From: an uncultured delta proteobacterium
Lineage (GTDB): Bacteria > Desulfobacterota > Binatia > UBA9968
DNA: 64,000 nucleotides
Reading direction: 5' to 3'
Assembly (NCBI GenBank): GCA_963760795.1
Contig: CAVXEP010000012.1
Coordinates: forward strand, 96,001-160,000
Part shown: piece by piece, positions 37,512-56,055 of the stretch
Position numbering within the stretch: the first letter of the stretch is position 1
How the letters are laid out: each line of letters starts with the position of its first letter
The notes under the pieces: model-generated
Told to the model about the DNA's origin: nothing
Databases searched by the model: none
The model's input: the letters and a program-made list of their open reading frames with translations, nothing else
Made by a program: the position numbers and the translations under genes

Positions 37512-38177
37512 TTAGTGAACGCGGATTTTCTTCGCCGCTTCGATGCCGAGAGAAAACTGATCGTCGCCGACTTTCAGCGTCATCATGCCAAGAGATGGGG
37601 CGACATCTATAATATGTACTTTGGCGCCTGGCACCAGTCCGTGATCCTCTAAATACCCCAACAGGCGAACATCCCGTTCGCCGCCCTCGGTAATATAGTC
37701 GAGATCCACTTGTTGGCCGTCCACGGCTTCGCTGAGCGGCACGGTTTTGGGCAGTTTACCGGAACCGGTTCCGGGAATCGGGTTGCCATGCGGGCAGGTC
37801 GTCGGGTTGCTCAACAGCTTTGCTAGACGTTCTTCAACCTCCTGCGAAATCGCGTGCTCCAAACGATGGGCCTCCTGATGCGCCTTGACCCAGTCCAATC
37901 CCAACAAGTCGGTTAGGAAACGCTCGGTCAGAAAGTGGCGGCGAACGATCCTCTCAGCGACTTTTCGTCCATCTTCGGTCAGATGAATCTCCTTGCGGCG
38001 ATTGATCGTGACGTAACCGTCACTAGCCAGACGACGCAACGTCGCGAACATGGTCGACGGCGTCACCCCGGTCTCGGCCGCGATGCGAGCGGCGATCACC
38101 GGTTGAGCCTCCTCGGCTAGCTGGTAAATCGCCTTCAAATAGTCCTCCAAGGCGTGGGTTACTTTATGAGCTTCCAT
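37512..38177 (-). CDS. DtxR/MntR/IdeR family metal-dependent repressor with FeoA-like domain
   Basis: EDYLKAIY, RRH.L.ERFL, EAHRLEH, CPHGNPIP. Confidence 0.93.
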   Translation of the reverse strand: MEAHKVTHALEDYLKAIYQLAEEAQPVIAARIAAETGVTPSTMFATLRRLASDGYVTINRRKEIHLTEDGRKVAERIVRRHFLTERFLTDLLGLDWVKAHQEAHRLEHAISQEVEERLAKLLSNPTTCPHGNPIPGTGSGKLPKTVPLSEAVDGQQVDLDYITEGGERDVRLLGYLEDHGLVPGAKVHIIDVAPSLGMMTLKVGDDQFSLGIEAAKKIRVH

Positions 38178-38419: not shown

Positions 38420-39493
38420 TTGATTCCTGGCAAAGCACCGATGGTTGTCATAAAAGTCGAAAAAGTCAGCAAGCGATACAACCACACCCCGGCTGTAAAG
38501 CGCTGCGACCTCCAAGTCCATTCAGGTGAGATTCTAGCACTGCTCGGACCGTCGGGATCGGGGAAAACCACCTTGCTCCGGCTGATTGCCGGATTCGAGC
38601 GACCCGATGAAGGGCGGATTCTTATCGGCGAGCGCACCGTCGTCGACGTCGCCGGTTCGATATGGCTCCCCGCCGAAGCGCGCGGCGTCGGGATGGTTTT
38701 TCAGGACTACGCCTTGTTTCCCCATTTGACGGTGACCGAGAATATTCAGTTTGGCCTGCGCGGCATTGCCAACCAAGAGCGCCAAGAGCGCCTTCAAGAG
38801 TTGTTGCGGGCAACCGAGTTGCTGCCGTATGCACAACGATATCCCCATGAATTATCGGGTGGTCAGCAACAGCGGGTTGCTTTGGCGCGCGCCCTAGCAC
38901 CGCGCCCGCCGGTTGTCTTGCTTGACGAAGCCTTCAATGGCCTCGACCCTGAACTCAGGCCGCAAATGCGCAAAGAGGTCGCTAGCATATTGCGCCAGAT
39001 GAAAACGGCCGCGGTGCTGGTCACCCACGACCAGGAAGAAGCTCTCGGAATGGCCGACCAAGTGGCGGTCGTTCGCCAGGGCGAACTGCAGCAAGTCGGC
39101 ACACCGGAAGAGGTCTATTATAATCCTTCGACTATATTTGTTGCCGGATTCGTCGGCCACGCCGACTTTATCGGTGGCGTCGTATCCGGAGCACAGGTTC
39201 AGACCGAATTTGGCAATTTCTCCTGTTCATCGGAGATTCGTCCCGGCCCGGTCAAAGTGATGATCCGCCACGAGGCCGTCAACACCAAAGCCGACGGCAT
39301 TCTCGCCACCGTCGAAGAGCGCGAGTTTCTTGGCGGCGAAATCCTCTACCGGCTGCGTCTCCCCTCGGGCGACGCGGTCCACTTGGAGCAACGCAAACCC
39401 GTCCATTGGCCGGTCGGACACCGAGTGCCAATCGACGTTCATATCCCCACCGCCGTGGTCTTTGCCGATGCCGGCAGTGAACCCATCGAGTAG
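38420..39493 (+). CDS. fbpC: Fe3+ ABC transporter ATP-binding protein
   Basis: GPSGSGKTT, FQDYALFPH, LSGGQQQR, TOBE tail; adjacent to fbpAB. Confidence 0.8.
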   Translation: MIPGKAPMVVIKVEKVSKRYNHTPAVKRCDLQVHSGEILALLGPSGSGKTTLLRLIAGFERPDEGRILIGERTVVDVAGSIWLPAEARGVGMVFQDYALFPHLTVTENIQFGLRGIANQERQERLQELLRATELLPYAQRYPHELSGGQQQRVALARALAPRPPVVLLDEAFNGLDPELRPQMRKEVASILRQMKTAAVLVTHDQEEALGMADQVAVVRQGELQQVGTPEEVYYNPSTIFVAGFVGHADFIGGVVSGAQVQTEFGNFSCSSEIRPGPVKVMIRHEAVNTKADGILATVEEREFLGGEILYRLRLPSGDAVHLEQRKPVHWPVGHRVPIDVHIPTAVVFADAGSEPIE

Positions 39494-39688: not shown

Positions 39689-39719
39689 TTGACAAACTAA
39701 TAACATTCGACTATACGAA
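39689..39719 (+). promoter_or_regulatory. sigma70 promoter with overlapping palindrome
   Basis: TTGACA-17bp-TATACG; TTCG-ACTATA-CGAA at 39706-39719. Confidence 0.65.
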
Positions 39720-42652: not shown

Positions 42653-42732
42653 GCCGGCGCAAACGGCAGGCCGAACCACGATTGGCGGATAGTAACTTTT
42701 TCAGGTCGCTTCCCCTTCCATATACGAACACT

Positions 42733-44711
42733 ATGGGTTCCTCCCCGGCTACGATTCCGCCACAATCGAAAGTTCAGATCGGCTCCTGTTCGCCATTGGA
42801 CTTGTTTTCCTAACCGTCACCGGCGCATTCGCTGCCGGCGATGAAGCCAAGCGTATTTTAGCGCTAATCGATTACATCGGCGGCGACTATCGCAACGCCG
42901 TGCAAGGCGGGAAAGTCGTCAGTGACGCCGAGTACACGGAGATGAGCGAGTTCTCGGCGCGCAGCTTGGAGCTGTTCAGCCAATTGAAATCCGCCGAAGG
43001 CGATAAAGCGGGCATCGAAAAAGATCTGCGAGCGCTGGCAAGCCACATACAGCAGAAAACCGGCGAGGATGCAGTGCCGCAGTTGGCCCAGCAGATCAAG
43101 GACCGCTTGATCAAAACCTATAACATCGTCACCTACCCCAAGGCTCTGCCGAACTACGAGGGCGCGAAACTGATCTACATGCAGAATTGCGCTCAGTGCC
43201 ATGGCGAGAGCGGCAGAGGCGACGGCCCCGGCCGCGAGTCGATGAATCCAAAAACACCGCCGCCGGCCAATTTTACCGACGCAGACTTCATGGCCGGACT
43301 CTCGCCTTTTAAAGTCTATAACACGACCACGTTCGGCATCGACAAAACGGCGATGGCTTCCTTCGCCGCGCTGCCGGACGAGCAACGCTGGCAAGTCGCC
43401 TTCTATGTTATGGCGCTACGTTTTCCCGCTGAAACAGCAGCTGCCGGAGAGTCCTGGCTGAAAGGCAAGTCGCTGCCGGCCACCCTCGCAGGCGTCGCCA
43501 CCTTGGCAACTTCTTCAGACAACGAGCTATCCGATAAAATCAAGACGAGTTTTCCCAACGCGCCGCACAACGACATTCTCGCCTACCTCAGGCGCGGGCT
43601 TCTAGAGAAAAAATCGAGCGATCCATTGTTGATCGCTCGCACCCTGCTCGGCGAAGCCGCTGAGATATACAGCAAAGGCGATAAGGAAAAAGCTTACCAG
43701 AAAGCCATCGAGGCCTACCTTGACGGCTTCGAGATGGCCGAGCCGGCGCTGTTCGCCAAGGATGCGGCCTTGGGAAGATCTCTCGAGGCCCAGTTCACGC
43801 AGTTTCGCAATTCGATCCGGCAGGGAGTTTCCGCCGAGGAGATTCAAAAACAACACGCCGAGATCGAAGCCAAGCTCGACCAGGCGGCACAGATGTTGGC
43901 CAGCAGCGATGATTTCTCCGGTTATTACGCATTCTTGAATTCGGCCCTGATCATTTTACGCGAAGGACTAGAGGCGGCGCTGATTCTCGCCGCGATCATC
44001 GCCATGCTGCGAGTGATGGGCGCGACAAAATCGATTCGTTACATCCATTTCGGCTGGATGCTGGCGGTGGCCGCCGGTTTCCTCACCTGGCTCGCCGCGC
44101 AGACCGTGCTGACTTTCAGCGGCCAGCACCGTGAAAGCATGGAAGGATTCATCTCGATCTTCGCCGCGGCGGCGCTGTTCTATGTCGGCTATTGGCTGCA
44201 CACCCGGACCGAGGCTAAACGGTGGCAGGCGTTTATTCAAGACAAAGTCCAAAACGTACTTTCGCGCAAAAGTATCTTCGGACTGGTCGGCATCTCTTTT
44301 TTCGCTGTGTATCGCGAGGCCTTCGAGGTCGTGCTCTTCTATCAGGCGCTCTGGTTACAGAATGAAAATAGCCACCAAGCCATCCTTGGCGGATTCGCCG
44401 CAGGCGTAGCCGCGCTGCTCGCGGCTACCTTTGCGATCTTCAAGCTCGGCCTGCGCATACCGCTAAAATACTTCTTCGGCGTCACCGGCACACTGCTCTA
44501 CATCATGGCCTTCATCTTCGCCGGCACCGGCATCAATCAATTGCAGGCGGCCGGCTGGGTTCCGGCAACACCGCTCGATTTTCCGCCGGCGGTGCCGCTG
44601 TTGGGCATCTATCCGACCATGGAAACCCTGGCAGCCCAGGGACTATTGGTCTGCATATTTATAGCTACCTCGCTATGGATGGCGCATGAACGAAAAAAGG
44701 CAGTGGCTTAA
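42733..44711 (+). CDS. Cytochrome c / FTR1 iron permease (PbrT-like); 5' end uncertain
   Basis: LIDYIGGDY.NAV, CAQCH heme motif, REGLE and YREAFE FTR1 motifs. Confidence 0.9.
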
Positions 44712-44900
44712 ATGCGTGTTCCAAGGCAAGGCGAACAGGAAACGGCGGAGACGGTGACTCAGGACGGCGATGCGCTTCGTTGCCATTGCGGCAGCTTGGT
44801 CGCCCGGCTGGTGCCGAATGGAGTGGAAATCAAATGCCGCCGCTGCAAACGGCGCGTTGTAATTCCGCTCGGTTTGGGCGCTTTTGAAATCTCAGAATAG
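44712..44900 (+). CDS. Mu Com-like zinc-ribbon microprotein
   Basis: LRCHCGSLVAR...VEIKCRRCKR; ATG immediately follows the FTR1 stop. Confidence 0.75.
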   Translation: MRVPRQGEQETAETVTQDGDALRCHCGSLVARLVPNGVEIKCRRCKRRVVIPLGLGAFEISE

Positions 44901-45006
44901 AGCCAATAATCGAGAAGCCATGGCACTTGATTGAAAGCTAATTAAGTTTTAATGTTCAGTTACTTAAAGAGTAATATTTAGTATCGACTAATAATTTTAC
45001 TTAGAG

Positions 45007-45037
45007 TTGACAAATATTATTGATTTCGATATACGAA
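45007..45037 (+). promoter_or_regulatory. sigma70 promoter of the TonB operon with candidate operator
   Basis: TTGACA-17bp-TATACG; TTCGATATACGAA overlaps the -10; TTAG-TATCGA-CTAA at 44978-44991. Confidence 0.7.
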
Positions 45038-45045
45038 CATAATTA

Positions 45046-45120
45046 GCGGCCAGCGATCTAGAATCCAGAGCCCGGATTTTGCCGAAAAAATATCGGCAAA
45101 ATTACGGGCATTTTTATTGT
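45046..45120 (+). promoter_or_regulatory. Leader attenuator: tandem repeat units overlapping an intrinsic terminator
   Basis: GCGGCCA-GCGATCTA-GAATCCA-GAGCCC, then gcccg..attttgccga-loop-tcggcaaaat..cgggc-ATTTTTATTGTTT, before the first SD. Confidence 0.8.
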
Positions 45121-45138
45121 TTACGGAGGTCAATCTAA

Positions 45139-45351
45139 ATGTACGGCATCAAATCACCCCAGGGCAGATGGTCGGTCTCGCTTTGCAACTGTAGTCAGGA
45201 CACCGCCCACTTTCACTACGGCAGCGTCGTCCTGCACATCGCCCGTGACGACCTGCGCGAGCTTGGTCTCGCCATGCAAAGCGTCGCCGAAGGTAGCGAC
45301 CTAACTGATACGGAAAATCACATCGAGTTAAAGAAAGGTCTGGTCCAATAG
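45139..45351 (+). CDS. Small hypothetical protein with a CxC-x5-HxH motif
   Basis: GGAGG SD; LCNCSQDTAHFHYG; first gene of the operon. Confidence 0.65.
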   Translation: MYGIKSPQGRWSVSLCNCSQDTAHFHYGSVVLHIARDDLRELGLAMQSVAEGSDLTDTENHIELKKGLVQ

Positions 45352-45353
45352 TC

Positions 45354-45963
45354 ATGTCGGCATTTATTGCAATCATCATCAAAGGCGGCATCGTCATGAT
45401 CCCGCTGCTCGCTTGCTCCTTGATCTCACTCGCGCTCACCATCGAACGGTTTGTGTTTTGGGCCAAACTGAAAACCAAAGATGTCCTGGATCAAATCTTG
45501 TCATTGGTCGAAAAGGGCGAATTCGAACAAGCTCTTAAAACTGGGCAAGACCTCCAGCCAGCCAATCGCGCGGGTTTTAGCGGCGGGTATCGCGCACCGC
45601 AATCCCGCGCCGGCGAAGGCAATGGAAGCTCTGGCGCAGGCCGAGATTCCCGTGCTCAAAAGCCGCCTCGGAATTCTCGACACCATCGTGACGCTTGCCC
45701 CTCTGCTCGGATTGCTCGGCACCGTCGTCGGCATGATCGGCTCCTTCGATGTCATGTCGGAAGCGGGCATGGGGCAACCCCACGCCATTACCGGCGGAGT
45801 CGCGGAAGCGCTCATCGCCACTGCCACCGGCTTGTTGATCGCGATCTTGACCCTGGTCTCCTACAACTACTTCACCGCCAAGGTCGAGCGCGAAATGGAC
45901 CGCATGGAGCACTTCAGCTCCTCGCTGGAATTGTTGCTGCATGAACATGCGGGGAAGCATTAA
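45354..45963 (+). CDS. exbB: MotA/TolQ/ExbB proton channel (frameshift near 45545)
   Basis: GGIVMIPLL..S, LAPLLGLLGTV.GMI, GGVAEALIATA.GL. Confidence 0.9.
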
Positions 45964-46376
45964 TGCGCATTCAACGCCGCAGTATCAAGAAAGCGCGCAT
46001 CGAGATCATCCCGATGATCGACACGATCTTTTTTCTACTGGTATTTTTCATGATCTCGACCTTGTCGATGACCCAGTTCAAAGGCATGCCGGTCAATCTG
46101 CCCAAGGCGGCGTCCGGCCAGCAGGCGCCCGCCGAGAGCGCGGCGATCACGATTGATAAAGACGGCCGGTTGTTTCTCAACCAGCAAGCGATCGACAAAG
46201 CGGCTCTCGGTGAAGCTTTGAGCCAGCAACTTGCGAAGAATGCCGAGATGTTGGTCGTCATCAACGCCGACGACGGCGTTCAGCACGGCCAAGTGGTCGA
46301 AGTCATGGACATCGCCCGCGGCGCCAACGTGGCAAAGATGGCCATCGCGGTCAAACCGAAGGAGCAGAAAAAATGA
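45963..46376 (+). CDS. exbD: Biopolymer transport protein ExbD
   Basis: IIPMIDTIFFLLVFFM, VNLPKA, INAD..V.HG.VV.VMD. Confidence 0.92.
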   Translation: MRIQRRSIKKARIEIIPMIDTIFFLLVFFMISTLSMTQFKGMPVNLPKAASGQQAPAESAAITIDKDGRLFLNQQAIDKAALGEALSQQLAKNAEMLVVINADDGVQHGQVVEVMDIARGANVAKMAIAVKPKEQKK

Positions 46377-47203
46377 ACGAGCGCTGGTTGGTATCTTCAT
46401 TCACTGCGTCGTCGTTGATTCATTTGGGAATAATTCCGTTGGCTGCGTTGGTGATGCACGCCAAACCGATTAAACCCGCCATGGTTCCCATTGAGCTGGT
46501 GGATGTGGCGCGCGTCGAGGAACCGAAGAAAGTCGAAGTCCCACCGCCTCCGCCTCCTCCAGCGCCCAAACCCAGGCTGCAAAATATCACCGCGCCGAAG
46601 CTTATATCCAAACCGGATTTCGAAACCAGCCCGCTGCCGCCAACCGGCAACACCAAGGAAGAGATCAAAGAGAAACCGGTCGAACAGCCGCTCGCCTCGC
46701 TGCCGGATAACTCCGGCGCCGCCAAGGCTGGATGGAATGTCGGCGCGCGCGCCGCGGAAGCCGAAGGCAGCGCCGCCGGCGCCGGCAATCTTTTCGGCAA
46801 GGGCGACGTGGGCGTGGTCGGCGGTAGCGGCGTGGCCGGCGGTGGCGGCGGCACAGGCGCGTCGGGATTGGGTCGAGGCGCCAAGGGCGACGGCACCGGC
46901 GGCGGCGCGGGCTCCGGCGAAGCATTATCGGGTCTCGCTCGCCCGCTCGGCGGTTACCAAGTCAAGCCGCGCTATCCCGAGTCCGCCAGAAGAGCGGGTG
47001 TTCAGGGAGTAACAACGTTGCGCGTGCGTGTTTTGGAGAATGGCCGGGTCGGCGAAGTGGTGGTCGAACAGTCAGCCGGCTTCCGGGATCTCGATTTCGC
47101 CGCGATGGACGCGGTCAAAAAATGGCTCTTCGAGCCGGCTCGCCGGGGCAAAGACGCGGTGTCGGTCTGGGTGATGTTACCGGTGAAGTTCGAACTGCAC
47201 TAG
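46373..47203 (+). CDS. tonB: Energy transducer TonB
   Basis: TM SxxxH motif, Pro-rich linker, YPESARR.G.QG, W.FEPA. Confidence 0.92.
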   Translation: MNERWLVSSFTASSLIHLGIIPLAALVMHAKPIKPAMVPIELVDVARVEEPKKVEVPPPPPPPAPKPRLQNITAPKLISKPDFETSPLPPTGNTKEEIKEKPVEQPLASLPDNSGAAKAGWNVGARAAEAEGSAAGAGNLFGKGDVGVVGGSGVAGGGGGTGASGLGRGAKGDGTGGGAGSGEALSGLARPLGGYQVKPRYPESARRAGVQGVTTLRVRVLENGRVGEVVVEQSAGFRDLDFAAMDAVKKWLFEPARRGKDAVSVWVMLPVKFELH

Positions 47204-47211
47204 GAAAGACC

Positions 47212-47403
47212 ATGGGCAAAACGCTTGTGAATTTCGCTATCAAACAAACGGTCACACCGAGTCTGCCGGCCCCTTCCGGCCCAAAGCCGCGCATCGAAAG
47301 CAATCACTTGTTTCAAGGCAACAGCGAGATCGTCATCGTGCACCAAAAGGAGGAATACAACCTGCGCATCACCAGAAACGGCAAGCTAATTTTGACGAAA
47401 TAA
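47212..47403 (+). CDS. hemP: Hemin uptake regulator HemP/HmuP
   Basis: LFQG..EI.I.H..EEY.LRITRNGKLILTK signature. Confidence 0.92.
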   Translation: MGKTLVNFAIKQTVTPSLPAPSGPKPRIESNHLFQGNSEIVIVHQKEEYNLRITRNGKLILTK

Positions 47404-47414
47404 TGTTTATGACG

Positions 47415-47488
47415 AAGCCAGCCATCCTCTCCTCCGGACGTGGAAAGCCAGCCAATCAAGCAACCCAAACACTATGGAGGATGAGATG
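47415..47488 (+). promoter_or_regulatory. HemP-responsive direct repeats with an anti-SD segment
   Basis: AAGCCAGCCA at 47415 and 47445; CATCCTCTCCTCC between them is complementary to GGAGGATGAGATG. Confidence 0.7.
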
Positions 47489-49662
47489 AGTCGGCAACAA
47501 AAGCGTGCGATCGAAAGAAAGAAGGGCAAGACGGCGTTCCAAAAACTCTGTCTTGCCGCGGGCGAAGGAGTTGGCAAGGCGATGGCTTTCAGCTTTGCGT
47601 TGGCAAGCCACGCAGGCGCGGCGGAGCCGAAAAAAGAGGAACCGATCACCCTGCCGCCTGTGGTGGTGCAGGATCAAGGCAGCCCCTACACTGCCGGAAT
47701 CGTCCCTGTCGAGAATACCTGTACCACTGCAGGATATGCCACAGTCGATTACCGTGATACCGCAACGATTAATGCAGGAACGCGGAGCTGCTAGCTTCCA
47801 CGATGCGTTGCGCAGTGTACCCGGTATTAGTTTCCAAGCAGGCGAAGGGCGGCGCTCAGGGCAACAATTTGACGTTGCGAGGCTATAACGCGAGGAACGA
47901 CCTTTTCATTGACGGGGTTCGCGATCAGGGCTCGTATTTTCGCGATATATTCAATCTCGAATCGATTGAGGTTCTAAAAGGACCGTCCTCACCTATACTT
48001 CGGCCGTGGCTCGACCGGTGGCGCGATCAATCAGGTCAGCAAAGTTCCACAGCTTACGCCGAGCTACGGCGGCATGTTTGCTCTGGCGGCAACGGGGTTT
48101 ATTTGCGGGGCACGAGCGATGTCAACCACCCAATAACCCGGTCGCCCACGCGGCTTTCCGCGTCAACTTGATGGCCCACAAGGACGATATTGTCGAGTCG
48201 CGACATTTCAGAGCAGCAACGATTGGGATTTGCGCCGTCGATCTCGTTCGGTCTCGGCACCCCAACCCAGTTAACCTTGAGCTATCTTATTCAAGGCGAA
48301 GACAATATTCCGGATTATGGTTTGCCCTACGTGGAATGGCAACCCGTTCCGCACCGACCGGAACAGCTTCTATGGCTTTGACCAGTGAAGATTACGAAGA
48401 AGACAATGCTGAATCTCGGCACGTCGCGGCTGGATCATCGCTTCAACGATATTTTCAGCTTGCGGAATACCCTACGCTACAGTCATAACGACCGGGAGCA
48501 CGAAACCACAGCGCCACGCGTCAATGTCATCCCCACCCTGTTCACCAGGAATAGACCGGCGCGCGATATTACTGAGGCGCTTCTCAGCAACCAAACGGAT
48601 CTAACCGCCAAGTTCGACACGTGGGGCTTTAAGCATGCATTAGTCTCAGGGCTCGAGTTTTCCCGGGACTGGTTGGATCGAACCAATTGATGCTTTCGTG
48701 GGAGCGCCGCCGGCAAACGCTATCAATCCAAACCCATACGCCAGTACCGCGGGCATGTCACACTCGGCTATCGCAGCGCGCAGACGGCGCCGCCTTCGGA
48801 TTCGGCATCTTCGCCGCAGATCAAATCAAACTGAACGAGTATTTTGAACTCGTCGGCGGCGTCCGTTGGGATTATTTCGACAACGACTTCGAAGGATCAC
48901 GCATAATACCCTGACGCGATAAGCTCGTTCGGACGGGTCGACGGATAAAATGTGGAGTTATCGGGGCGGACTGATCTTTCACCCGACCCCGTCACAGAGC
49001 TACTATTTCTCCTATGCGACCTCGTTCAATCCCTCCGCCGAAGCCATCCCTCAGCCAGCCACCAACGGTACTCCTCCGGAAAAGAATAGAATCTTCGAAA
49101 TCGGCGGAAAAGTGGAATTCTTCAATGGAACCTTAAACCTGCAAGGCGCTGTATTTAGAATCGACAAAACCAATGCCCGTGTAACTGATCCATTAGACCC
49201 AACCGGGACGCTCGTGCTTGACGGTGAGCAACGTGTTCAGGGTGTGGAATTCGGCATCGCTGGCCGCATTCTCCCCAACTTGAATGTGTTCGCTGGATAC
49301 ACTTTTCTCGATTCGAAGTTTCGCAAATCCCCGACCCCAGCCGTCGAGGGCAATCCGATATTAAACGTGCCGAAGCACAGCGCGAACTGTGGGTAACCTA
49401 CGACTTTTTCGAAAAGTGGCAGATCGGCGGGGGGCCGACGTATGTCAGCAGCTCGATCTACAACAATGCCGCGAACGTCACCCGTGTCCCGGTTCATGTT
49501 CTCTGGGACGCGACGGTGGCGTATCAGCTAACCAAGAATTTCCAATTCCGGCTCAATGGTATCAATCTTACCAATGACCATTACTATTCGGCTCTCAGCG
49601 GAGGAAACGTGTTGCCTGGAAATGGGCGCACGTTCATCCTCAGCACGAGCTTCAAGTTCTAA
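47486..49662 (+). CDS. TonB-dependent siderophore receptor (Fiu/PiuA-like), multiple frameshifts
   Basis: [47 protein letters not shown]-terminal F, spread over at least 6 ORF pieces. Confidence 0.85.
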
Positions 49663-49676
49663 GGAGTCCGACAAAA

Positions 49677-50357
49677 ATGATCGTCCAAGTGCCCAATGTC
49701 CTGAACTCCGAACAGCTCGCGCGCTGCCGTGAAGTGATGCAGCGCGCGGGCTGGATCGATGGCCGCGTGACGGCAGGGTATCAATCCGCCGTGGTCAAGG
49801 ACAACCGCCAGCTACCGGAGAATAGCCCGGAGGCGCGGGAGCTCGGCGATATGATCGTGGCAGCCCTGGAGCGCAACCCGCTGTTTATCACGGCGACGTT
49901 GCCGCTCCGGGTCTTCCCGCCTCTATTCAACCGCTACGAAGGCGGCGAATCATTCGGCGCGCATCTGGACAATTCCATCCGGCAGATTCCCGGCACACCG
50001 CTGCGCGTGCGCACGGATATTTCCGCGACGCTGTTTCTCAGCGCGCCGGAAGACTACGACGGCGGCGAGCTGGTCGTCGACGACGTTTACGGCGCCCACG
50101 CGGTGAAGCTTGGCGCCGGCGACATGGTGGTTTATCCGGCGAGCAGCCTGCACCACGTCAAGCCGGTGACGCGGGGAGTTCGTCTCGCGTCGTTTTTCTG
50201 GGTGCAGAGCATGGTGCGCGACGACGGCACTCGAACTCTGCTTTTCGATCTCGATATGGCGATCAACAAAGTCAATCAAGCTCTGCCAAATCACGGCGCC
50301 GTGGTGGAGCTGACCAATTGTTATCACAACTTGCTGCGGCGCTTCGCGGAGGTGTGA
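49677..50357 (+). CDS. piuC: PKHD-type Fe(II)/2OG dioxygenase
   Basis: [40 protein letters not shown]. Confidence 0.93.
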
Positions 50358-50358
50358 C

Positions 50359-50891
50359 ATGAATAGGCGATCAAGAATGATCTCGGCCATCGCCCTCGTG
50401 CTGGTTGCCGGCTGCGCCGCGGCCGCGCCGGTGGATGAATCCGCCGCGCGCGGATCTCCGTCGCCTTCATCGAACCGGAGAAATTCACCGACGCGCGCCG
50501 CGCCGAGCTGGAGCCGACATCGACGGGCATCGTCGGCGAACTGCAAAAATTTATCATCACGACCGGCGCGCGCTACATCCCTGAGAATATGACACTGAAT
50601 ATCCGGATCACTGACATCGACCTCGCCGGCGACTTCGAATTGTTTCGCGGTCCGCAAGCGGACCAAGTGCGCATTGTCAAAGGTCTCTACCCGCCCCACA
50701 TCGTGCTTGAGTTCGAGATCATCGATAGCGCCGCGACGGTGGTCAAATCCGGCAAACGCGACTTGACCGATATCAATTACCAACTCCGCAGCGTTTACCC
50801 GAGAGAAGACTATCTACGCTACGAAAAGGATATCTTGCGCGACTGGCTGCGCGCCGAGCTTGGTGTTCTGAAGGCCGGCAAGACCAACTAG
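50359..50891 (+). CDS. DUF3016-like exported protein (frameshift near 50455)
   Basis: F.EPEKFTD, ITDIDLAGDFE, VRIVK.LYPP.I, LRYEK.IL.DW. Confidence 0.8.
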
Positions 50892-50907
50892 CGCCCGAGG
50901 AGACGGC

Positions 50908-52730
50908 ATGAAGCTGCTGCATAAAATCATTTTTTGGTCCCACCTGCTCGCCGGCGTTATCGGCGGCACCGTCATCTTCATCATGTCGGCGACCGGCGTC
51001 ATCCTGATGTACGAGCGCCAACTGGTCGAATACGCCGAACGACGACGTGCGCGAGGTCGTGCCGCCGGATGCCAATGCGCAGCGCATAAGCCTGGATGAA
51101 CTGGTAGCCAAGGCGCGCGCGCAGAATCCCAAAGCCCAGCCCACAGGCGTGGTCCTGCGCAACGAACCGACCGCATCCGTCGCCGTCGGCTTCGGTCGTG
51201 AAGGCGCAACCTACGTGAATCCATATACCGGGGCGATCCTCGGCTCGGAATCGAAACTGCATGACTGGTTTCACGACGTCGTCGATTGGCACCGCTGGCT
51301 CGGCACGGAGGGCGAAGGCCGTGTCACCGCGCGCGCCATCACCGGTGCTTGCAACCTAGCGTTTTTCTGGCTGGCGCTTACCGGAGTCTATCTCTGGTGG
51401 CCGCGCAGTTGGCACTGGCGGGGATTGAAGCCGAGCCTCCTTTTCAATTTCCACCTCCGCGGCAAAGCGCGCGACTGGAACTGGCACAACGTCATCGGTT
51501 TTTGGTCGTCCGTCGGTGCTCGTCGTTCTCACGCTCACCGCGGCGGTGATGTCTTATCCGTGGGCCAACGATCTGCTCTACACATTGACCGGCAGCGAGC
51601 CGCCGCCAAGAGCGCAAGCCCCCGGCCCTGCGGCTCAAGCGCAGCAGCGGCGCGGCGCGGGCACAGAGACGCGCGAGCGCAAGCCGATGGCAAGCTTCGA
51701 TGCCTTCCTGGCGCGCGCCGATCAGCAAGCTCCCGGTTGGATCATGATGACGATGCGCCTGCCGCCGCGCGGCGATGGACCGGTCACGGTCTTGATTCAA
51801 GAGCCGACAGCGCCGCATATTTTCGCGCGCTCGCAACTGGCGCTCAATCGCTCCAGTGCCGAAGTCATAAAATGGGAGCCCTACGCCGCCGCCAGTCCGG
51901 GACGAAAGCTGCGAGTCTGGGTGCGCGGTCTTCACACTGGCGAGGCTCTCGGTTTCGCCGGCCAGACCGTCGCCGGCCTGGCGTCTCTCGGCGGCTGTTT
52001 CCTGGTTTGGACCGGCCTCGCAATGGCTTGGCGGCGTTTCCGCTACCGTAAACGCGATGCCGAAGACGCAACCACTGTGGAATATGTAACCGCGCCGGTG
52101 CAAGCCAGTCCCGAAGTCGTGCACACCGCGCCGCAGACCAATGAAGCATCAAAGGAGGCAACGAGAATCGACATGGAAGAAACGACCTCTAGCGCAACCA
52201 ACGGCCATGCTCACAACGGCCACGAGGACGCCCGCGCCCAATGGACCGGCGCGCCCGACAACGGCGATTCAGTACTCGTTCTGTACGGCACCGTCACCGG
52301 CAACGCCGAGTTGCTGGCGAATAAGCTGTCGGCGGCGCTACGCCGCGCCGGCGTAGCAGCTCGGGCACGAGACATGGCGCACTGCCAACCCAGCGTGTTG
52401 ACGCAGGCAAATTGCGTACTGGTGGTGATCAGCACCTACGGCGACGGCGAGCCGCCTGACGATGCCGCGTCGTTCTGGAAGGCTGTGGTGCAAGGCAATA
52501 GCCTCGATCTGCGCGGCGTCAAGTTTTCCGTGCTCGCCCTCGGCAACACCACCTACGATCATTTCTGCAAGTGTGGCCGCGACTTCGACGCCGCCCTGGA
52601 GCGCCACGGCGGCATACGAATCCATCCGCGCGTCGATTGCGACGTCGATTACGACACGCCGGCCAAGCATTGGCTCGACGGCGTGCTGGCGCAACTCCTC
52701 GACGACGAACGCAGCGCTCACTCGGCATAA
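50908..52730 (+). CDS. PepSY-associated TM helix protein (PiuB-like) with a C-terminal flavodoxin domain (2 frameshifts)
   Basis: FWSHL.AG, WHRWL, TGVYLWWP, WNWHNVIG, LHTGE; then LYGTVTGNAE, STYGDGEPPD, ALGN..YDHFC. Confidence 0.85.
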
Positions 52731-52747
52731 ACCAAAGGAGAACCCTC

Positions 52748-53428
52748 ATGACCAAGTTGATTTCCCTTTTCACGATGCTTGCGACGCTGTCGTTAATTCC
52801 TTCCGCTCACGCTCATTTCCTTTGGCTCGAACGTGACGGTGACGGCCCGGCGCGCGCCTACTTCGGCGAATGGATCGACGATATCCGCGAAAAAACCGGC
52901 GGGCTGCTCGACCGATTCAAAGCGCCGCGCGTATTTGTCGGCGCGAACAACGAACCGCTCCAGGTTAAACGCAATGAAAATAACCTCGAATTCGCAGCCA
53001 AAGGAGCTGGCGACGTGCGCTTCGTGGACAGCAGCGTGCCAGCGCGCGACGACAACGAAAAAGGCGGAACTACCAAGACAATCTATTACGCCAAGCATGG
53101 GCGTTCGGAAACCGCGGCGAAGCTCGACTTGGAGTTAGTGCCCACAGAAGCCAACGGTAAAACCTTTGTGCTAATTTTGCTCGGTTCACCGCTTCCTAAA
53201 GCCGAAGTCACGATCATCGGCCCGTCCAAGTGGGAAAAGCCGTTAACCACCGATGAACAGGGCCGTGTCACTCTGCCGATGCCCTGGACGGGTCGCTACG
53301 TTTTGGAAGTGACCCACTTCGATGACAAGGCCAGCGGCAGCGGTAGCGAAAAATTCAACCGGACGCGCCATATATCGTCGCTTTCGTTTGTGCAGCAGGA
53401 CGGCATACCCTGGATCGATAAGCGCTAA
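52748..53428 (+). CDS. DUF4198-like periplasmic metal-transport accessory protein
   Basis: Signal peptide AHA followed by HFLWLE; YFGEW, TDEQGRV. Confidence 0.7.
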   Translation: MTKLISLFTMLATLSLIPSAHAHFLWLERDGDGPARAYFGEWIDDIREKTGGLLDRFKAPRVFVGANNEPLQVKRNENNLEFAAKGAGDVRFVDSSVPARDDNEKGGTTKTIYYAKHGRSETAAKLDLELVPTEANGKTFVLILLGSPLPKAEVTIIGPSKWEKPLTTDEQGRVTLPMPWTGRYVLEVTHFDDKASGSGSEKFNRTRHISSLSFVQQDGIPWIDKR

Positions 53429-54467: not shown

Positions 54468-54612
54468 AGAGTTATTGTCAAGCTAGAGGTTTAGTTGACG
54501 GACTATCGGGACTCGCGCTCTGTACAGCGACCGCCGTCGTCCATTGGCATATCGCCCGGCCTGGGCGAGAACGACCTACAGGAAAAGTAAAGATCAGCTA
54601 AATTTCCCGGAC

Positions 54613-55091
54613 CTAGCTCTTCTTGTATATCTGTTGCGCGAGGTAATTTTGGTATCCGACTTCTTCAATCTCATGCAGCTGGGTTTCGATCCAGTCGACA
54701 TGCGCTTTCTTCATCAACGAGAATATGCTCCAAAAGCTCCCGGCTGGCGTTGTCACTCGCGTCGAAGCAGCTCTTGATGCCGCCTTTTAAAACTGCCAGT
54801 GCGCCCTCTTCCAATCCAAGATCATTTGCCAATTGCTGTTTCACCGATCGCTCCGACGCTGATTTTGTCATAAGCGGTGAGATTGGGAATCCCTTCGAGG
54901 AAAAGAATCCGTTCGATAATTTGATCGGCGTGCTTCATCTCTTCAATGGATTCTTTCCACGCCACCCCTGCCAGCACCTCGTAGCCCCAGTTTTTGCACA
55001 TCTTGGAGTGAATAAAATACTGATTGACGCCGGTAAGCTCTTTGCGCAGCACTTCGTTAAGAACCTTGATGACTTCAGGACTTCCTTTCAT
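54613..55091 (-). CDS. bfr: Bacterioferritin (two frameshifts)
   Basis: MKG, ELT..NQYF.H, ESIEEMKHAD (heme Met), RILFLEG.PN, DWIETQL, NYLAQQ. Confidence 0.92.
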
Positions 55092-55404
55092 ACCTTACCT
55101 CCGTACGGTTTATCTAAGCATGTACTTCGGCAAAGAACAAAGCGGATTATAGACTTTTGCTGAATTTTTCCAGCCGCCGATTCTCATCGGACGTCCTCTC
55201 TGTCATTCTCAATAGGACCATAGTCCACTTTGATCAATTGCCCGTGAACACTTTCGCCATCAGAAAACTAAAGACACCGGTGTTTCCCATAGTTGAAGTT
55301 TTTTGCAGCCCACATTTTCAACAATGACAATTTATCTTTGGTCCAGCCTCGATAAACCAAGCCAATCGGACGCGGCACGCTAAGTGCTTCTTCAGCTAAA
55401 CAAA

Positions 55405-55464
55405 GAGGCCAGCGGTCACGAACCCAGAGCCCAGCGTTTTGCCTTAGCGGCAAAACCCGGGCTC
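55405..55464 (+). promoter_or_regulatory. Second copy of the repeat+hairpin leader, upstream of dpsL
   Basis: GAGGCCA-GCGGTCAC-GAACCCA-GAGCCC (23/28 identical to the 45046 copy) plus GTTTTGCC/GGCAAAAC stem. Confidence 0.75.
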
Positions 55465-55554: not shown

Positions 55555-56055
55555 ATGGGCACTAAAGGAAGAGAAATTGTCGGCATGGACGTAGAACAAC
55601 TGTTGAAGACACTCAACATGGCTTTCGCCGACGAGTGGTTGGCTTATTATCAATACTGGCTCGGCGCCAAAGTCGTGAAGGGGCCGATGAAAGAAGCGGT
55701 GATCGCCGAACTTTTGCAACATGCGGCGGACGAGCTTCGTCATGCCGGCCTGATCGCGGGCAGGATTATTCAGCTCGGCGGCACGCCGGTGGCCGAGCCG
55801 AAAAAATGGTACGACGTGACCAGTTGCGGTTACGACGCGCCCGATGACCCGTTCGTCGAGACTATCCTGAACCAAAACATCAAGGGCGAGCGCTGCGCCA
55901 TCGACTTTTACAAGAAGCTGTTAGAGGCGACGCAGGGCAAAGATCCGGTCACTTACAATATCGTATTGCAGATTCTCCAGGACGAAGTGGCGCACGAGGA
56001 AGACCTCCAATCGCTCGCTGAGGACCTGGACTTCATGTTGAAGAAATCACAATAG
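55555..56055 (+). CDS. Ferritin-like DPSL (Dps-like) protein
   Basis: ADEWLAYYQYW, ELRHA...RIIQLGG.P, two Cys (SC.Y, ERCAI), E..HEED; AGGAGG SD. Confidence 0.88.
   Translation: MGTKGREIVGMDVEQLLKTLNMAFADEWLAYYQYWLGAKVVKGPMKEAVIAELLQHAADELRHAGLIAGRIIQLGGTPVAEPKKWYDVTSCGYDAPDDPFVETILNQNIKGERCAIDFYKKLLEATQGKDPVTYNIVLQILQDEVAHEEDLQSLAEDLDFMLKKSQ

Follow-up and report, generated by a model that had tools for sequence, protein, structure and literature searches.

A lineage-limited stack of a candidate DtxR-type repressor and two putative RNA relays at a siderophore receptor operon of a Binatia-like bacterium

The stretch of DNA analyzed here (the window) comprises 64,000 nt of the 6.58-Mb assembly of an uncultured bacterium of the Binatia and contains an iron island in which a TonB-dependent siderophore receptor gene is preceded by candidate regulatory elements at three levels. 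The island begins with a divergent dtxR gene and runs on through afuC, afuA, afuB, a cytochrome c-FTR1 gene, com, a 238-nt gap, and a 70-aa open reading frame; its second half consists of exbB, exbD, tonB, hemP, the Fiu-like receptor gene, piuC, and genes for DUF3016, PepSY/flavodoxin, and DUF4198 proteins, followed by genes for a siderophore-interacting protein and ferritin-like proteins. A first-pass annotation, made from the sequence alone, had proposed that these parts form a three-tier chain acting on initiation, termination, and translation. Our comparisons with related genomes point to a lineage-limited stack of separable modules, one putative repressor and two putative RNA relays, built from the following features.

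37512..38177, minus strand: DtxR/MntR-family repressor with an FeoA-like C-terminal domain (PF01325, PF02742, PF04023), divergent from the island; candidate tier-1 regulator.
39689..39719, plus strand: promoter heading the afuA-afuB-ftr1-com run; a 14-bp palindrome (39706-39719) covers its -10.
44712..44900, plus strand: Com-like four-cysteine zinc-ribbon protein of 62 aa, starting where ftr1 ends; candidate antiterminator.
44978..45037: three 14-bp operator-like palindromes (44978, 45001, 45024) at 23-bp spacing, the last two covering the -35 and -10.
45007..45035, plus strand: sigma-70-type promoter with a canonical -35, a 17-nt spacer, and a non-canonical -10; its predicted start falls on the leader's first bases.
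45045..45122, plus strand: leader RNA; a weak hairpin (45048-45072) overlaps the 5' foot of an intrinsic terminator (45070-45109), with a U-rich tail to 45122.
47212..47403, plus strand: hemP/hmuP family regulator (PF10636, 62 bits against a cut-off of 25), single copy in the genome.
47415..47480, plus strand: HPRE, with tandem repeats (47415-47424 and 47445-47454), a spacer that can pair with the Shine-Dalgarno (SD) region, and the SD itself at 47476-47480.
47486..49662, plus strand: Fiu/PiuA-like TonB-dependent siderophore receptor, in frameshifted pieces in the assembly.

The candidate repressor contains all three domains of its family (helix-turn-helix, metal/dimerization, and SH3/FeoA-like), finds its best PDB match in IdeR (E 1.8e-35), and scores under the equivalog cut-offs of both DtxR and MntR. 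The operator-like palindromes that the first-pass annotation placed on the leader promoter are present, as 14-bp boxes at 44978, 45001, and 45024 on the promoter at 45007-45035. Of the genome's 2004 canonical -35 hexamers, four are followed by the unusual -10 variant of this promoter, and two of those belong to this island. The same promoter type recurs in relatives either adjoining the dtxR start codon (five loci) or before ftr1 (two loci). We built a symmetric box profile from 26 boxes of eight relatives, excluding the window's own genome; all six leader promoters of these training relatives carry a triple of 14-bp palindromes 23-24 bp apart. Across the 6.58 Mb of the genome, the profile ranks the box at 39706 first among single sites, and it yields four tandem box pairs, the two best of which make up the triple at 44978/45001/45024. 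The profile is partly circular, two of the three boxes overlapping the promoter hexamers by which training sites were chosen, and its training genomes are close kin. Single profile sites are unspecific (224 in the genome at 11 bits or more), and the plain palindrome pattern by itself occurs at chance level (9 versus 6.25 expected).

These boxes could be read differently: tier 1 could be a Fur-family protein, or the boxes could be partly promoter sequence, with the neighboring DtxR sensing manganese or another metal. Three Fur-family genes in the genome encode proteins that could bind the boxes, the overlap of two of three boxes with promoter hexamers suits such an explanation, and in the DtxR protein Asp and His replace IdeR's Met10 and Cys102, ligands of the primary site that have been tied to iron selectivity (PMC11672702). 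The upstream box, however, is palindromic outside the hexamers in six of six relatives, the boxed promoter adjoins the dtxR start in five relatives, and the box length suits a single DtxR dimer, one of which a 14-bp palindrome takes (PMC13379313). We consider the Fur or promoter explanation improbable and DtxR the likely binder of the 14-bp boxes; that iron is the signal we infer from gene content. Two further observations concern the boxed promoters. An apparently decayed copy lies before ftr1 at 42700-42735 of the window and is intact at that place in loci L035 and L038, and afuC (38420-39493), located between dtxR and the boxed promoter at 39689, seemingly falls outside the boxed transcript.

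The terminator that had been described in the leader is borne out: the hairpin at 45070-45109 together with its U-rich tail has a z score of -5.8, with 0 of 200 shuffles as good. Ahead of it, the weak hairpin has a symmetric 4x4 loop between two 3-bp stems, and its 3' strand doubles as the terminator foot. The bare weak hairpin folds at about -5 kcal/mol versus about -30 kcal/mol for the terminator fold. Among 133 distinct leaders, terminator positions outside the search pattern are pairable in 130 and 128 (shuffle means, 98 and 85), and the inner pair of the weak hairpin is pairable in all 133, as G-C in 106, G-U in 16, and A-U in 11 but never as A-C; the shuffle mean for this count is 124, and 0 of 2000 shuffles reach 133. 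Judged by pairing, the weak hairpin and the strong terminator appear mutually exclusive and both conserved, which is the arrangement of a ribonucleic antiterminator (RAT). In BglG/LicT-RAT, HutP, and ANTAR systems, a weak, protein-stabilized hairpin and a strong terminator contend for bases that both need. Com is unlike the proteins of those systems in being unrelated to them and in having no phosphorylation or ligand domain, and its input appears to be the amount of protein. Neither the leader nor the HPRE matched an Rfam family, the two matches elsewhere in the window being chance ones. A consensus promoter and terminator scan performed at chance level (5 versus 4.5 promoters) and overlooked both the leader terminator and the 45007 promoter.

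The window's Com protein has no Pfam match, and 7 of 37 homologues match PF10122 weakly (best E 0.0012); it matches PHROG gpCom at E 0.0014, a profile matched by 21 of the 37, and is assigned to Com-like Atlas clusters (0.96). Its four cysteines are invariant in 37 of 37 aligned rows, and a zinc ribbon is predicted. The structure model has three strands (predicted local distance difference test score, 79), and a fold search of this model against the PDB gave no match at E 0.001 or better. A com gene is found in 37 of 101 genomes (three of these matches being weak or variant), with ftr1 directly upstream in 27 of 30 loci. In the window, com sits upstream of the leader's own promoter, a point absent from the first-pass annotation. 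Some loci are more elaborate: L036, L044, L088, L278, and L282 have several leaders per island, L036, L044, and L088 have two com genes, and in L036 and L088 com lies downstream of a leader, an arrangement that would make positive feedback.

Com and the leader travel together. The exact conserved box of the leader occurs in 34 of 101 genomes, all of them among the 37 com carriers, and in 0 of 64 com-less genomes, while a reversed control pattern gives 0; the box lies within 400 nt after com in 28 of 30 loci. A scan that used only the RNA pattern returned at least 122 loci, which among the matches listed are titled mostly Nitrospira and Binatia, with others in Chloroflexota, Myxococcota, Methylomirabilota, and Bdellovibrionota; titles naming Verrucomicrobiia, Acidiferrales, and some Eisenbacteria and Chloroflexota were not counted as extra phyla, their leaders being identical to window-family loci. 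Within the same matches, 112 distinct leaders have sufficient flanking sequence (six others, too short in flank, were dropped), and 43 of these follow a com stop codon by no more than 200 nt. Com is encoded elsewhere in 45 of 50 genomes chosen for their orphan leaders, and one of the five misses is likely a chance match. We set aside locus L165, which looks like a chance match, and a phage origin of the exact box, Com being nearby in 0 of 62 viral-contig box matches.

If Com acts through the leader, it need not act on termination. The leader might work on translation or RNA stability, as in phage Mu, where Com is a translational activator (PMC6483171), or another factor might bind it, leaving the hairpin as a constitutive attenuator. 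A leader copy before a ferritin gene has a poor U-tail, and the ribosome site often stands close behind the U-tail, as such a role would allow. Against this, at least 6 T follow within 8 nt of the stem in 105 of 133 leaders, a count partly set by the search pattern; the start codon is 50-190 nt further on in many loci; and the terminator, rather than the SD, is what the conserved box overlaps. We find a translational or constitutive leader very improbable.

The neighbors of the pair bear on whether Com itself senses anything. A scan of domains in neighboring genes, covering 79 chosen proteins of 206 candidates, showed that genes downstream of leaders vary widely, most annotated ones serving metal uptake (FTR1, imelysin, cupredoxin, TonB systems). 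The metal-uptake neighbors and the invariant cysteines would suit a Com that holds iron or zinc in its four-Cys site, or responds to redox, and so provides a second independent input, to which HemP would add heme, a ligand that its relative ChuP binds (bioRxiv 10.1101/2022.02.10.479982). In Chloroflexota, by contrast, the gene order is TetR-com-leader-acyl-CoA dehydrogenase (TetR by Pfam in L067, L070, and L074), and one Myxococcota locus reads Fur-com-leader; these placements favor a relay behind a repressor over an iron sensor. An iron-loaded antiterminator would also presumably be inactive just as uptake is needed. On balance we give little credence to Com as a sensor. As observations on the range of the module, com-leader units stand before acyl-CoA dehydrogenase genes, outside an iron context, in L067, L070, L074, and L085, and in the Nitrospira loci (L049-L123) the leader mostly precedes an HD-domain (HD-GYP-like) gene (HD_5 in seven proteins), and com lies on the same strand several kilobases before it; the cultured Nitrospira defluvii (L147) is another carrier of the leader.

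Further downstream, a PF10636 protein is encoded ahead of a TonB-dependent receptor, the arrangement typical of HemP/HmuP-HPRE systems. The two exact 10-nt HPRE repeats are the only two exact copies within the window and match the HPRE of Chromobacterium chuR (bioRxiv 10.1101/2022.02.10.479982). Among 19 loci, tandem repeats after hemP are exact in 15 and variant in two, and two were unparsed. In all 14 parsed loci (of 15 given), the HPRE spacer pairs with the receptor start region, and it does so in two unrelated ways, five spacers being anti-SD (the window's type) and nine anti-start-codon; either type also folds into a small hairpin by itself. Spacer duplexes beat base-shuffled spacers at z < -1.64 in 10 of the 14, the window's own not among them. 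For the window, the anti-SD pairing gave z -2.3 over 106 nt, -0.6 over 89 nt, and -1.2 as a spacer/start-region duplex, which is not significant in this genome alone. Of the repeat/anti-SD element described in the first-pass annotation, the repeats stand, and the pairing draws its support from the relatives. Other groups have described HemP/HmuP as transcriptional activators (PMC11442138). Two observations touch this region: the closest relative has a second HPRE-like tandem repeat after DUF4198 (L031:18193-18230) that is absent from the window, and contigs of sequencing runs X1 and X2 join across positions 47201-47376 (29-nt side), possibly from a relative with another tonB-hemP junction.

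The order of parts is as the first-pass annotation had it, each candidate regulator being encoded upstream of its target. The exbB/exbD and exbD/tonB genes overlap, the tonB-hemP gap is 8 nt, and the receptor starts 82 nt beyond hemP, which makes one transcript from exbB to the receptor likely; a consensus scan, a weak one that missed real candidates, found no promoter-like site before hemP or the receptor. The further statement that the last two regulators lie within transcripts of the preceding tier fares well for hemP, which lies downstream of the terminator in a run of genes separated by 0-8 nt, and is more qualified for com, which abuts ftr1 in the boxed-promoter run and is probably co-transcribed with it. 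The complete order com-leader-exbBD-tonB-hemP-HPRE-receptor with a divergent dtxR occurs in 8 of 14 long loci, and three more genomes show it in altered form, the receptor being a different one, the stack being divided between two contigs, or com lying on a separate contig. With the window included, 12 of the 18 genomes bearing hemP keep the order, and these 12 belong to one family. The six others comprise two cut at a contig edge, one that is 60% complete, one with hemP elsewhere, and two from another family with DtxR and HemP but without Com.

How the tiers are wired differs among loci. The boxed promoter stands between com and the leader in 9 of 30 com loci, those resembling the window, which implies feed-forward wiring; the other 19 of 28 leader-bearing com loci matched no such promoter, and their leader lies 14-81 nt after com, which implies a serial chain on one transcript. 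In the window, boxes at both promoters (39706 and 44978-45037) would give the feed-forward layout, with com presumably transcribed from 39689. Feed-forward wiring is known from network theory to give delay. A delayed or thresholded receptor output, as the first-pass annotation supposed, could follow from such a layout.

The same parts might nevertheless make no real cascade. Portable cassettes could have accreted, with Com and HemP saturating at once after de-repression, so that the island would behave as one repressor-controlled unit with lower leak. The modules do occur apart (among 101 relatives, DtxR is found in 81, Com in 37, and HemP in 18, and HemP is lacking from 24 of the 37 with Com), a genus mate that is 99% complete (L270) has dtxR-afu-ftr1 without com, and the genes after the leader vary widely, as noted above. 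This separability means that, although the topology of the proposed three-tier feed-forward chain holds, the chain is not one co-evolved three-step device. On the other side, the nine loci with the boxed promoter between com and the leader are those leading into the exbBD operon, and both RNA gates are kept in exbBD-type loci with compensatory changes. Simple accretion is, in our estimate, unlikely.

We regard one metal-sensing repressor with two downstream RNA relays as a somewhat probable explanation of the locus. With iron, DtxR dimers on the boxes at 39706 and 44978-45037 would shut both promoters. During starvation both promoters would fire, but transcripts begun at 45007 would form the strong terminator and end there. 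The afu-ftr1-com transcript would supply Com, which would bind the small hairpin with the symmetric loop at the leader's 5' end and, once bound, keep bases 45070-45073 off the terminator, allowing read-through into exbBD-tonB-hemP-receptor, as structure and co-occurrence suggest. HemP, by analogy to HmuP/ChuP, would bind the tandem repeats so that the spacer folds on itself and not on the ribosome site, and the receptor message would be freed or stabilized. The result would be a second relay placed after a coherent feed-forward loop, with inner-membrane iron import coming first and TonB and the receptor coming later or in sustained starvation only. More broadly, and as a tentative proposal that we hold to fall short of probable, a phage Com-type zinc ribbon may have been domesticated in several phyla as a ligand-free, portable antitermination relay that can stand behind any repressor (DtxR, Fur, or TetR) and convert de-repression into a second wave of expression, later and with little leak; one Binatia-like family may have chained this relay in series with HemP, so that the receptor is gated at initiation, termination, and translation, each relay being made by the tier above.

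Several points weigh against the repressor-and-relays explanation, beyond the three Fur-family genes and the substituted metal ligands of DtxR discussed above. The weak hairpin alone is no stabler than its shuffles (z -1.2 to 0.7, 5 of 5), although this instability is expected if a protein must hold the hairpin, and its outer stem is fixed by the search pattern, hence invariant and uninformative. Related genomes are not independent, so covariation and co-occurrence counts overstate, and the shuffles ignore kinship. The leader box, GAG-N-CC, is one base shorter than the GAG-N2-CC selected by Mu-type Com (PMC6483171), though it too is bipartite and flanks a stem. At the HPRE, the shift in accessibility from 0.28 to 0.57 is weak, since forcing the element unpaired necessarily raises accessibility. 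Only part of one family has the stack, hemP having been found in 0 of 41 leader-bearing genomes chosen outside the window's group, and the receptor gene, the final target, is broken in this assembly.

That break more probably reflects consensus error than decay, and we are fairly confident of this from the pattern of differences. Against an intact 722-aa relative, the receptor gene shows 16 non-triplet indels and 0 nonsense substitutions in 715 codons, and differences favor third codon positions (121 versus 36 at second positions). Private indel events number 14 in the receptor gene versus 0-2 in 15 other genes compared; another relative's assembly has a similar pile-up of indels in this gene, and several of the gap sites are filled by bases in short-read contigs from near relatives. 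A pseudogene is disfavored, given the missing nonsense substitutions, the third-position excess, and the different sequence at the breaks in relatives' contigs. The fragments match TIGR01783 and Fiu best, below cut-off as fragments. Among public sequencing runs, none contained half the query words; one RNA run, at a share of 0.06, consisted of contigs of relatives. If the breaks are real, receptor output would be dead in this strain and intact in relatives.

The remaining features of the island, and a second leader copy beyond it, are as follows.

42900..44711, plus strand: cytochrome c-FTR1 iron permease with one indel, probably translated from about 42735 onward and ending directly against com.
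45139..45351, plus strand: 70-aa conserved protein without an assigned function, the first gene past the leader; kept in relatives and part of an Atlas cluster of 216 hypothetical proteins.
45354..47203, plus strand: exbB, exbD, and tonB, with overlapping stop and start codons; exbB has one frameshift.
49677..53428, plus strand: piuC-like hydroxylase, DUF3016, PepSY-TM/flavodoxin, and DUF4198 genes, likely the remainder of the transcript.
55404..55462, plus strand: second leader copy, ahead of a DpsL-like ferritin gene (55555-56055); its U-tail is poor, and no com gene adjoins it.

The 70-aa protein (45139-45351), which has no match in Pfam or NCBIfam, contains Cys and His residues, is often first after the leader, also in the distant loci L048, L061, L075, L077, L100, and L114, and could be a further nucleic-acid- or metal-binding part. 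The second leader has the same placement before a DpsL-like gene in three relatives (L032, L036, and L039), and the uptake regulon may extend to this gene for storage or protection. The first-pass annotation of the cascade mentions neither this second leader nor the frameshifts in exbB and the receptor gene. Divergent from it, on the minus strand, lies a frameshifted bacterioferritin-like gene (54594-55091). A repeat finder run on the window gave nothing informative.

Two of the three control points have close published counterparts. In Chromobacterium violaceum, Fur represses chuPR, chuP and chuR are co-transcribed with no promoter preceding chuR, and the ChuP (HemP/HmuP)-HPRE pair controls chuR and vbuA, with ChuP activating a siderophore receptor as well (bioRxiv 10.1101/2022.02.10.479982); HmuP-shmR in Ensifer meliloti is a related system (bioRxiv 10.1101/2022.02.10.479982; PMC11442138). 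The window shares with the Chromobacterium Fur-ChuP-HPRE system a promoter-directed repressor (here a candidate), a hemP gene upstream on what is likely the target's transcript, tandem repeats in the receptor leader, no recognized promoter inside the transcript, and a siderophore receptor as target, so that repressor, HemP/HPRE, and receptor together are a published design. It differs in that the repressor is probably of DtxR type, hemP is the fifth gene behind a terminator gate, the host is Binatia-like, and there are two anti-start spacers. With actinobacterial DtxR/IdeR regulons it has in common a three-domain repressor and, as candidates, palindromic operators over iron-uptake promoters (PMC11672702), and it is unlike them in the Asp/His substitutions, in 14-bp boxes 23 bp apart, and in a diderm host with TonB systems.

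Only the middle control point, Com and its leader, looks undescribed: our searches of the literature on Com, on antitermination with iron, on HmuP, and on iron regulation in Binatota, subscription papers being outside their coverage, found neither the leader nor the stack. The nearest parallel is Com-mom of phage Mu (PF10122), whose Com protein binds a two-part GAG(N)2CC motif placed in the loops to either side of a 3-4 bp stem (PMC6483171). Both systems have a small four-Cys zinc protein, putatively a positive relay in the window as it is in Mu, encoded shortly before an RNA site whose GAG/CC motifs are repeated around a short stem. In the window, unlike Mu, the setting is a chromosomal iron island, the site overlaps an intrinsic terminator and not a translation-inhibition stem, the protein is below the Pfam cut-off, and the genes downstream are for iron uptake and not phage DNA modification. 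To these known designs the locus adds two things: a pair of putative RNA relays placed in series beneath a single candidate repressor, within part of one family, and a two-way HPRE spacer.

HPRE spacers of both unrelated types can either hide the receptor start region or fold on themselves, and so offer a testable mechanism for the debate over whether HemP/HmuP acts on DNA or RNA. All parts are small enough for rebuilding in E. coli. If the proposed relay is true, Com and its leader would be a compact antiterminator class of about 40 core residues and a 30-nt RNA site, absent from Rfam and from the literature searched, that spans Nitrospira, Binatia, Chloroflexota, and Myxococcota, and iron uptake in these bacteria would be ordered in time by RNA relays, beyond repressor affinity alone.

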